Assembly (NCBI RefSeq): GCF_050320075.1
Contig: NZ_CP190018.1
Direction: 5' to 3' (one strand)
Origin: Escherichia coli
GTDB taxonomy: Bacteria > Pseudomonadota > Gammaproteobacteria > Enterobacterales > Enterobacteriaceae
DNA: 64,000 nt
Shown: piece after piece, positions 46,819 to 51,067 of the stretch
How the letters are laid out: every line of letters begins with the position of its first letter
Position numbering within the stretch: the first letter of the stretch is position 1
Notes under the pieces: generated by a model
Seen by the model: only the letters and a program-made list of their open reading frames with translations
What the model was told of the DNA's origin: nothing
The model's database searches: none
Position numbers and translations under genes: made by a program

Positions 46819-48889
46819 TCTGGCCGCGATGCTGCGCCTGCCTGCAAACCTGAAATCGACACAATGGCAGATCCTTGCCGGACCGATTTTGATCCTGTTG
46901 ATTTTGTCGATGATGGTGCTGCCACTGCCCGCATTCATACTCGACCTGTTGTTTACCTTCAATATTGCCTTGTCGATCATGGTGTTGCTGGTGGCGATGT
47001 TTACCCAGCGCACGCTTGAGTTTGCTGCGTTTCCGACCATTCTATTGTTTACTACGTTGTTGCGTCTGGCACTTAACGTAGCTTCAACCCGCATCATTTT
47101 GATGGAAGGGCATACCGGCGCGGCGGCGGCTGGGAAGGTGGTCGAAGCGTTCGGTCACTTCCTCGTTGGTGGCAATTTCGCTATCGGTATCGTGGTGTTC
47201 GTCATTCTCGTGATCATCAACTTTATGGTCATTACCAAAGGTGCCGGGCGTATCGCAGAAGTGGGGGCGCGCTTTGTTCTCGATGGTATGCCGGGTAAGC
47301 AGATGGCGATTGACGCCGACCTTAACGCCGGATTGATTGGTGAAGATGAGGCGAAAAAACGCCGCTCCGAAGTGACTCAGGAAGCCGATTTTTACGGCTC
47401 AATGGACGGGGCAAGTAAGTTTGTTCGCGGCGATGCCATCGCCGGGATCCTCATCATGGTCATTAACGTTGTCGGCGGGTTGCTGGTCGGCGTGCTGCAA
47501 CATGGCATGAGCATGGGACACGCCGCGGAAAGTTATACGCTATTGACCATTGGCGACGGTCTGGTGGCACAAATCCCGGCGCTGGTGATTTCTACCGCCG
47601 CGGGGGTCATCGTTACGCGTGTCAGCACCGATCAGGATGTTGGCGAGCAGATGGTGAATCAGCTTTTCAGTAACCCGAGCGTTATGTTGTTAAGCGCCGC
47701 CGTGCTCGGTTTACTCGGCCTGGTGCCCGGAATGCCGAACCTGGTATTTTTGCTGTTCACTGCCGGATTGCTTGGGCTGGCCTGGTGGATCCGCGGACGT
47801 GAACAAAAAGCGCCTGCCGAACCAAAACCGGTAAAAATGGCAGAGAATAATACCGTTGTCGAAGCGACGTGGAACGATGTACAACTGGAAGATTCCTTGG
47901 GAATGGAAGTGGGTTATCGACTGATCCCGATGGTTGATTTCCAACAAGATGGCGAGTTGCTGGGCCGTATTCGTAGTATTCGTAAGAAATTTGCTCAGGA
48001 GATGGGGTTTCTGCCGCCGGTGGTGCACATTCGCGACAATATGGATCTGCAACCTGCACGTTATCGCATTTTGATGAAAGGCGTAGAGATTGGCACTGGC
48101 GATGCCTATCCGGGGCGCTGGCTGGCAATTAACCCAGGTACCGCTGCCGGGACGTTACCTGGTGAGGCGACCGTCGATCCGGCATTTGGCCTGAATGCTA
48201 TCTGGATTGAAAGTGCGCTTAAAGAACAGGCGCAGATTCAGGGGTACACCGTGGTTGAGGCCAGCACGGTGGTGGCAACGCATCTTAACCACCTCATTAG
48301 CCAGCATGCCGCAGAGCTGTTTGGTCGTCAGGAGGCGCAACAGCTGTTGGATCGCGTCGCCCAGGAGATGCCAAAGCTGACGGAAGATCTCGTTCCTGGC
48401 GTCGTCACGCTCACCACACTGCATAAAGTGCTGCAAAATCTGCTCGATGAAAAAGTGCCGATTCGCGATATGCGCACTATTCTCGAAACGCTGGCGGAAC
48501 ATGCGCCCATCCAAAGCGATCCACATGAATTAACCGCCGTCGTGCGCGTGGCGTTGGGACGGGCGATTACCCAGCAGTGGTTTCCTGGCAAAGATGAAGT
48601 TCATGTTATTGGCCTCGATACACCGCTGGAACGTTTGTTGCTACAGGCGTTGCAGGGCGGGGGCGGACTGGAGCCAGGGCTGGCGGATCGTTTACTGGCG
48701 CAAACTCAGGAAGCTCTATCCCGTCAGGAGATGTTGGGTGCGCCGCCAGTTTTATTGGTGAACCACGCGCTGCGACCATTATTGTCTCGCTTCCTGCGCC
48801 GCAGCTTGCCGCAGTTAGTGGTGCTGTCGAATCTGGAACTATCTGATAACCGACATATCCGCATGACGGCGACAATTGGCGGTAAATGA
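46811..48889 (+). CDS. flhA: flagellar export apparatus protein FlhA
   Basis: Recognised as FlhA; start at MSNLAAMLRL, 8-bp overlap with flhB. Confidence 0.95.
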   Translation: MSNLAAMLRLPANLKSTQWQILAGPILILLILSMMVLPLPAFILDLLFTFNIALSIMVLLVAMFTQRTLEFAAFPTILLFTTLLRLALNVASTRIILMEGHTGAAAAGKVVEAFGHFLVGGNFAIGIVVFVILVIINFMVITKGAGRIAEVGARFVLDGMPGKQMAIDADLNAGLIGEDEAKKRRSEVTQEADFYGSMDGASKFVRGDAIAGILIMVINVVGGLLVGVLQHGMSMGHAAESYTLLTIGDGLVAQIPALVISTAAGVIVTRVSTDQDVGEQMVNQLFSNPSVMLLSAAVLGLLGLVPGMPNLVFLLFTAGLLGLAWWIRGREQKAPAEPKPVKMAENNTVVEATWNDVQLEDSLGMEVGYRLIPMVDFQQDGELLGRIRSIRKKFAQEMGFLPPVVHIRDNMDLQPARYRILMKGVEIGTGDAYPGRWLAINPGTAAGTLPGEATVDPAFGLNAIWIESALKEQAQIQGYTVVEASTVVATHLNHLISQHAAELFGRQEAQQLLDRVAQEMPKLTEDLVPGVVTLTTLHKVLQNLLDEKVPIRDMRTILETLAEHAPIQSDPHELTAVVRVALGRAITQQWFPGKDEVHVIGLDTPLERLLLQALQGGGGLEPGLADRLLAQTQEALSRQEMLGAPPVLLVNHALRPLLSRFLRRSLPQLVVLSNLELSDNRHIRMTATIGGK

Positions 48890-49281
48890 TGAGAACCTTA
48901 TTAGCAATATTATTGTTTCCGCTGCTGGTGCAAGCCGCCGGGGAGGGGATGTGGCAGGCGAGTAGTGTGGGCGTTACGCTGAATCACCGTGGTGAGTCGA
49001 TGTCGTCAGCGCCTCTTTCTACTCGACAACCTGCTGCAGGATTGATGACGCTGGTGGCGTGGCGTTATCAGCTTATCGGCCCGACACCTGCAGGACTGCG
49101 GGTTCGCTTGTGTTCACAATCTCGTTGTGTCGAATTAGAAGGGCAGAGTGGAACCACCGTGGCCTTTTCCGGTATACCGGCGATAGAACCGTTGCGATTT
49201 ATCTGGGAAGTGCCTGGCGGTGGGCGGTTAATTCCGCCGCTAAAGGTACAACGGAATGAAGTGATTGTGAATTATCGTTAA
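48889..49281 (+). CDS. flhE: flagellar protein FlhE
   Basis: 130-aa ORF with signal peptide, start at MRTLLAILLF. Confidence 0.9.
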   Translation: MRTLLAILLFPLLVQAAGEGMWQASSVGVTLNHRGESMSSAPLSTRQPAAGLMTLVAWRYQLIGPTPAGLRVRLCSQSRCVELEGQSGTTVAFSGIPAIEPLRFIWEVPGGGRLIPPLKVQRNEVIVNYR

Positions 49282-49287
49282 TGATAA

Positions 49288-49319
49288 AAAAGCCGATGTC
49301 TGCCATGACATCGGCTTTT
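49288..49319. terminator. bidirectional rho-independent terminator between convergent flhE and argS
   Basis: AAAAAAGCCGATGTC...GACATCGGCTTTT hairpin with A/T runs on both sides. Confidence 0.6.
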
Positions 49320-49333
49320 GCCGTATAACGCGA

Positions 49334-51067
49334 TTACATACGCTCTACTGTCTCAATACCCAGCGTATCCAGACCCAGTTTCAGCGTCTTCGCCGTCAGT
49401 TGTGCCAGTTTCAGACGGCTGTTACGCACTTCTTCGTTTTCTGCGCTGAGGATCGGGCAGTGCTCGTAGAAGCCAGAGAACAGACCAGCCAGATCGTACA
49501 GGTAAGCACACATCACATGCGGCGTGCCTTCACGGGCAACCACGGTGAGGGTTTCTTCAAACTGCAGCAGGCGAGCTGCCAGTTGCGCTTCACGATCTTC
49601 ACGGATGATAACCGGAGCTGCAGCCAGTTGCTCTTCGTCAATTTCTGCTTTACGGAACACGGACAATACACGCGTGTATGCATACTGCATGTATGGCGCG
49701 GTATTACCCTCAAACGCCAGCATGTTGTCCCAGTCGAAGATGTAGTCCGTGGTGCGGTTTTTGGAGAGATCCGCATATTTCACCGCACCAATACCAACTG
49801 CGTTAGCCAGTTTTTCCAGCTCGTCGGCTGGCATATCCGGGTTCTTTTCTGCCACCAGACGACGTGCACGCTCCAGGGCTTCATCCAGCAGATCCGCCAG
49901 TTTCACTGTACCACCCGCGCGGGTTTTGAACGGTTTGCCGTCTTTGCCCAGCATCATGCCGAACATGTGGTGTTCCAGCGGTACGGATTCCGGTACATAG
50001 CCTGCTTTACGGACGATAGCCCACGCCTGCATCAGGTGTTGATGCTGACGGGAGTCGATGTAATACAGCACGCGATCGGCATGCAGTGTTTCATAACGAT
50101 ATTTCGCACAGGCGATATCAGTGGTGGTGTAGAGATAGCCACCATCTTTCTTCTGAATGATCACGCCCATCGGTTCGCCTTCCTTGTTTTTGAACTCATC
50201 AAGGAATACGACGGTCGCGCCTTCACTTTCTACTGCCAGACCTTTGGCTTTCAGGTCCGCCACGATACCCGGCAGCATTGGGTTGTAGAGACTTTCACCC
50301 ATGACGTCATCGCGGGTCAACGTCACGTTCAGACGATCGTAGGTGATCTGGTTCTGCGTCATGGTGATGTCGACCAGTTTGCGCCACATCTCGCGGAAAT
50401 ATTCGTCACCGCTTTGCAGTTTGACTACGTAGTTACGTGCACGCTCGGCAAACTCTTCATCTTCGTCGTAATGCTTTTTCGCATCGCGGTAGAAACCTTC
50501 AAGGTCAGCCAGCTCCATTTCACCGGCGTTTTCTTGCTGCTGCTTTTCCAACCACGCAATCAGCATACCGAACTGAGTACCCCAGTCGCCGACGTGGTTC
50601 GCGCGAATCACTTTGTGACCGAGGAACTCCAGAGTACGCACTGCCGCGTCACCAATAATGGTAGAGCGCAGGTGACCGACGTGCATCTCTTTCGCCACGT
50701 TCGGAGCGGAGTAGTCAACCACAATGGTCTGTTTTTCTGGCGTAGCAACACCGAGACGATCGGACGCCAGCGCCTGCTGAACATGATCAGCCAGGAAGGC
50801 TGGATCAAGAAAAATGTTGATAAAGCCTGGACCGGCGATCTCAACTTTGCTGGCGATACCGTTAAGATCCAGATGAGTCAGCACCTGCTCTGCTAATTGT
50901 CGCGGTGCCATACCCAGTTTTTTAGCAACTGCCATCATGCCGTTAGCCTGATAGTCGCCGAACTGAACTTTTGCTGACTGACGAACCTGCGGTTCGCAAT
51001 CCGCAGGCGCGCCTGCCGCAATCATGGCCTGACGGACTTTTTCTGAGAGAAGAGCCTGAATATTCAC
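49334..51067 (-). CDS. argS: arginine--tRNA ligase
   Basis: 577-aa class I aaRS with HVGH and KMSK-like motifs. Confidence 0.95.

Follow-up and report, generated by a model that had tools for sequence, protein, structure and literature searches.

The junction between flhE and argS in the window, i.e., the whole 64-kb stretch of Escherichia coli DNA (64,000 nucleotides) analyzed here, very probably represents the common "empty-site" allele of this locus, with one hairpin between the two genes, and the 784-bp junction of K-12 an alternative allele that is also old. The compact form, identified by an unbroken match to a 172-bp query across the junction, is present in 1,783 of 5,426 complete E. 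coli genomes (33%), and the 784-bp yecT segment of K-12 was matched in 3,642 of 5,426 (67%), 3,554 of these at a coverage of at least 80%. The two counts add up to 5,425, which fits a site with two alleles; the remaining variation at the site consists of IS insertions or deletions of the flagellar region. Genomes with the compact allele include O25b:H4 and Seattle 1946, and those with the yecT allele include K-12, B, O157:H7, O104:H4, O111 and O121. Since about a third of sequenced E. coli carry the same form, the compact junction is ordinary, and the absence of yecT is a very common allele that is not special to the window genome. Among the minor variants, flhE is missing in a minority of complete E. 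coli genomes (H39, H40), where the match to the junction query is limited to its argS half, and at least one genome (H107) carries an IS1 insertion within yecT segment DNA.

K-12 is not representative at flhE/argS, as a third of sequenced E. coli lack yecT and yecV, and conclusions on these two poorly characterized genes do not carry over to strains with the compact allele. The junction would also offer a tidy natural case of one hairpin serving two convergent genes. The overall importance of the compact junction is small; the allele is already known, being contained in the existing annotation of about 1,800 public genomes, and is unsurprising to a specialist.

In the window, flhE is the last gene of a flhB-flhA-flhE run, and the gene order in the ORF list is flhB, flhA and flhE on the + strand, argS on the − strand, and then yecM, cutC and torY. 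The flhE ORF ends in CGT TAA (49276-49281), with the TAA at 49279-49281. The initial annotation had placed the stops of flhE and argS only 52 bp apart, a distance confirmed by both the sequence and the ORF list. The features of the junction are as follows:

48889..49281, + strand: flhE coding sequence (ORF list; Pfam FlhE PF06366, E = 3e-41; start taken from the RefSeq annotation of the identical CFSAN061763 sequence)
49282..49284, + strand: TGA, a further in-frame stop that immediately follows the TAA of flhE (junction extraction and alignments)
49282..49333, strand-neutral: flhE-argS spacer of 52 bp, the compact allele without yecT (sequence and ORF list)
49286..49291, + sequence: A6 run, giving the six-U tail of the putative argS terminator on the − strand (terminator scan; invariant in 7 Escherichia compact alleles)
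49288..49319, both strands: hairpin with 13-bp perfect arms, a 6-nt loop at 49301-49306 and a G+C-rich core at 49292-49300 / 49307-49315
49316..49319, + strand: T4 run after the stem, a short and weakly conserved U-tract, with no terminator called on the + strand
49334-51067, − strand: argS, arginine--tRNA ligase of 577 aa, stop codon at 49334-49336 (ORF list and RefSeq annotation of the identical locus)

The gene ends in the RefSeq annotation of CFSAN061763, which has an identical junction, are the same as those in the window. A consensus scan of the junction region found no promoter, and an Rfam scan of 49000-49600 gave nothing beyond a match to isrA within argS that is at chance level (E = 0.47, 16 bits vs. 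a gathering score of 51). Two small ORFs that overlap the hairpin, one of 35 aa (49199-49306, − strand) and one of 43 aa (49318-49449, + strand), were rejected as genes, being antisense to flhE and argS and without support.

The initial annotation had also stated, with some hesitation, that in K-12 a small ORF, yecT, lies between argS and flhE. This is correct according to the annotation of MG1655 (NC_000913.3), where yecV is present as well:

1960062-1961795, + strand: argS (b1876)
1961837-1961881, − strand: yecV (b4778), 14 codons
1961972-1962460, + strand: yecT (b1877)
1962580-1962972, − strand: flhE (b1878)

The comparison of the two junctions, which had been proposed as a check, gave 784 bp rather than 52 bp between the argS and flhE stops in MG1655, with yecT and yecV in between, and the K-12 derivative RP437 is the same. 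K-12 YecT is a 162-aa protein of the LprI family (PF07007, E = 1e-17). A tblastn search with this protein gave no match in the 64-kb window at E ≤ 1e-5, and there is no LprI-family ORF between argS and flhE of the window, where the gap is only 52 bp; the suspected absence of yecT was thus borne out.

The window and K-12 share the same convergent flanks, with ArgS 100%, FlhE 95% and the flanking DNA 94-97% identical, and an argS terminator hairpin at the same place relative to the argS stop. However, the 784 bp of K-12 with yecT and yecV stand against 52 bp without either in the window, the sequence of the terminator stem is different, and flhE ends in CGC TGA in K-12 vs. CGT TAA TGA in the window. 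The boundaries of homology, which were read directly from the sequences, lie at the flhE stop codon, where homology ends, and 3 nt outside the argS stop, where it restarts. Since the whole spacer differs, the compact form is not simply K-12 minus yecT. Local alignment of the 52-bp and 784-bp spacers found a single common stretch, ATAAAAAAGCC-GAT, which lies at the left arm of the argS terminator in each allele. Only 2 of 1,000 shuffles reached the score of this 11-nt A-rich left arm. The stretch was set aside as proof of spacer homology, being too short and too typical of terminators. The argS hairpin of K-12, at the equivalent position, folds with −22 kcal/mol. The consensus scan of the K-12 spacer called no terminator, though folding shows this hairpin, and it is suspected that the scan missed it as the loop is too long for its rule.

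Two further observations concern the K-12 spacer itself. The yecV ORF, on the strand opposite argS and yecT, has its end within the left arm of the hairpin that forms the argS terminator of K-12 (L001 2592-2636; 2620-2665) and is missing together with yecT from strains with the compact allele. In addition, a 10-nt direct repeat, GTGAATTATC, occurs in K-12 at the 3′ end of flhE (L001 1881-1890) and over the yecT stop (2009-2018). The repeat was considered as a recombination footprint and set aside, as its two copies do not enclose the entire indel; one such 10-mer over this distance was judged unremarkable and possibly due to chance.

To place the two alleles outside E. coli, one genome per species was scanned with FlhE, which gave 80 loci. 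E. albertii (L006) and the locus L003 both have a 55-bp gap in which the arms of the core hairpin are the same as those of the window, and flhA and argS of L003 are 91-93% identical to E. coli. Their compact junctions differ from that of the window by a loop region that is 3 nt longer and by one extra FlhE codon (Gln). The yecT allele is found in E. whittamii (L005) and in Escherichia sp. E1V33 (L004), in both of which it is 92-95% identical to K-12, about the same as the flanks. L003 is the record NZ_JAATUR010000018.1, labeled "Escherichia coli strain SCPM-O-B-8794"; it is as distant from E. coli as the named cryptic Escherichia species are, and despite its label probably belongs to an Escherichia lineage other than E. 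coli.

Both alleles are old, as each is found in several Escherichia species and the yecT allele has diverged as much as its flanks, suggesting that both predate, or have crossed, the species boundaries within Escherichia. The compact allele is probably the older of the two, since it is common to E. coli and E. albertii, a polarity that rests on a handful of Escherichia lineages, with E. fergusonii outside the sample. The end of flhE itself also varies among these alleles. The tandem stop TAA TGA occurs in all five E. coli compact alleles examined. In E. albertii (CAG TGA) and L003 (CAA TGA), the TGA is the real stop and FlhE has one extra C-terminal Gln; a C>T change thus seems to have removed one C-terminal residue of FlhE in the five examined E. 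coli compact alleles. K-12 flhE arrives at an FlhE of equal length in another way, by ending in CGC TGA.

That the junction arose as an artefact of assembly or collapse is already refuted, and the probability of this reading is practically nil, as 1,783 complete RefSeq genomes have a junction that is identical or nearly so, and the 8 kb around the junction match the window at 99% identity or more in 136 genomes. If the lineage of the window strain had recently lost yecT-yecV by deletion from a K-12-like state, this would account for the location of yecT at exactly the same site in K-12 and in 67% of E. coli genomes, and for the presence of ATAAAAAAGCC-GAT in the left arm of the argS terminator in both alleles. 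However, the 52 bp of the window are not contained in the 784 bp of K-12, from which they differ in both stem and loop. The same 52-bp spacer is also carried by diverse E. coli, including O25b:H4 and ATCC 25922-type strains, and homologous 55-bp spacers are found in E. albertii and L003, whose flanks are 6-11% diverged. Near-identical flanking haplotypes, furthermore, were not seen, the flanks being 89-94% identical. On these sequence comparisons, a recent deletion appears largely refuted and is highly improbable. It is nevertheless possible that one allele was derived from the other by insertion, or by deletion followed by divergence, because the 11-nt A-rich left arm is common to both terminators.

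Beyond Escherichia, the junction holds other genes in most of the loci. An MFS_2 transporter (PF13347) and a GH88 hydrolase (PF07470) follow flhE in 60 of the 76 non-Escherichia loci, and two more loci, both truncated, have MFS_2 only. This two-gene cassette occupies about 3 kb between flhE and argS (e.g., L011 4157-6884; loci L007-L082), and is absent from all five Escherichia lineages sampled and from four Enterobacter/Lelliottia species. In Salmonella and several Citrobacter, a PBP2-like gene is added or substituted at the junction. Its product (PF03717 + PF00905, 623 aa) adjoins argS at L009 (5351-7222, − strand), L014, L021 and Citrobacter loci, and the Salmonella protein may, as we presume, be the PBP2SAL paralogue (STM1910). 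In the four Enterobacter/Lelliottia species, flhE and argS are separated by just 54-57 bp, with one hairpin in each gap, AAAACCCGGC-GATT-GCCGGGTTTT, whose sequence is unrelated to that of the window hairpin, which suggests an independent origin of the compact junction in these species. The flhE/argS junction is thus a site of repeated gene turnover, occupied by the MFS/GH88 cassette, a PBP2-like gene, yecT or nothing.

The most economical reading of this distribution is a history in three steps. The MFS-transporter/GH88 cassette would have been lost in the Escherichia lineage, leaving the compact junction; in a single lineage, the spacer would later have given way to yecT-yecV; and both alleles would have ended up in E. 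coli. The presence or absence of yecT-yecV may further be a long-lived polymorphism across species that is maintained by selection, a proposal that we consider improbable. If so, the target of selection could be the cost or benefit of YecT as an envelope protein, or the transcriptional coupling of argS and flhBAE at a distance of 52 vs. 784 bp. The alternative to selection is neutral sorting together with recombination.

The yecT segment has a G+C content of 39% vs. 53% in its neighbors, and the expression of yecT has been reported to rise moderately in an hns stpA mutant and to be strongly activated with BglJ-RcsB (PMC3950696). Such a low G+C content combined with the BglJ-RcsB and hns stpA response is the usual signature of acquired DNA. 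A search for a vector of YecT identified none, with no match in the phage collection and four records in the plasmid collection (H181-H184). These four "plasmid" records are either 0.4-4.8 Mb in size or, in one case, a Klebsiella oxytoca record of 5 kb whose yecT is 99% that of E. coli, and they are probably chromosomal sequence or contamination rather than real plasmids.

Returning to the window, the 52-bp spacer contains a sole inverted repeat, which is perfect, with the arms AAAAGCCGATGTC (49288-49300) and GACATCGGCTTTT (49307-49319). The single hairpin in the gap, as described in the initial annotation, was found by the terminator scan, by folding and by the inverted-repeat search alike. 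Its 13-bp stem includes 6 G-C pairs, and the predicted RNA hairpin has a folding energy of −25 kcal/mol on the + strand (z = −6.3) and −23 kcal/mol on the − strand (z = −5.5), with 0 of 200 shuffles folding as well. When up to 3 mismatches are permitted, the palindrome still has a single match in the window, against 0.04 expected by chance; the hairpin is therefore not a dispersed repeat, and a REP/BIME-like dispersed palindromic repeat was rejected on this single copy of the motif within the 64 kb. In an alignment of seven alleles, i.e., the five E. coli compact alleles, L003 and E. albertii, the 9-bp core stem and the A6 run are invariant and the loop varies. Since the stem is invariant among the sequences examined, this constitutes conservation rather than covariation.

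On the argS strand, the core stem, located 18 nt from the argS stop codon, is followed by the U-tract UUUUUUAUCAUU, and a terminator is predicted here by the consensus scan. A G+C-rich stem-loop just past the argS stop with a U-tract directly 3′ of it is what is seen in Rho-independent terminators. The sequence and its conservation suggest that the hairpin is a canonical intrinsic (Rho-independent) terminator for argS, in which the argS transcript would fold into the hairpin followed by UUUUUU. On the flhE strand, the stem is followed by UUUUG only, which falls below the scan rule of at least 5 T in 8 bases. The corresponding run in the allele alignment is TGTT in A42, O16:H6 and O25b:H4 and CTTT in L003, and such a short, unconserved U-run on the flhE side argues against a selected canonical terminator for flhE.

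The initial annotation had regarded the hairpin as a bidirectional terminator shared by both genes. The part of this claim that holds is that the gap is flanked by convergent flhE (+) and argS (−), that a stem-loop is predicted in both RNAs and that the argS terminator is called; termination on the flhE strand, where only UUUUG follows the stem, was not called. Two-way termination by the hairpin is nevertheless plausible from the sequence. The flhBAE transcript would form an equally stable hairpin followed by UUUUG, at which RNA polymerase probably terminates or pauses less efficiently, and polymerases that approach from argS and collide with it head-on may perhaps help to stop it. Ju et al. 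2019 documented bidirectional terminators at convergent gene pairs of E. coli, as described in a preprint (bioRxiv 10.1101/2022.10.23.513370), which also states, citing the same study, that polymerase collisions have been proposed to help at such terminators. The published SEnd-seq data are from K-12, which carries the yecT allele. The window hairpin resembles the SEnd-seq bidirectional terminators (Ju et al. 2019) in being a G+C-rich perfect hairpin between convergent genes, bordered by a run of A at one end and a run of T at the other, so that U residues would follow the hairpin in either transcript. However, it is asymmetric, with six U on the argS side vs. four U on the flhE side, the latter unconserved.

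The hairpin could instead terminate argS only, with flhBAE being stopped by Rho, polymerase collision or RNA processing, or reading through, which we regard as possible but doubtful. The scan finds a terminator on the − strand only, and the T-run on the flhE side is 4 nt long and replaced by TGTT or CTTT in other compact alleles vs. the invariant A6, both of which agree with termination of argS alone. However, the hairpin on the + strand, at −25 kcal/mol, is equally stable and begins at most 10 nt from the flhE stop, and the 52 bp leave no room for any other structure. Hairpins between convergent genes, moreover, terminate both ways at many E. coli loci without a canonical U-tract, as stated in the preprint (bioRxiv 10.1101/2022.10.23.513370), and the independent compact junctions of Enterobacter/Lelliottia have hairpins with A and T runs on both sides. 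Two-way termination remains plausible, and the element is best described, as far as its sequence suggests, as a putative intrinsic terminator of argS that is situated, in addition, 10 nt behind flhE.
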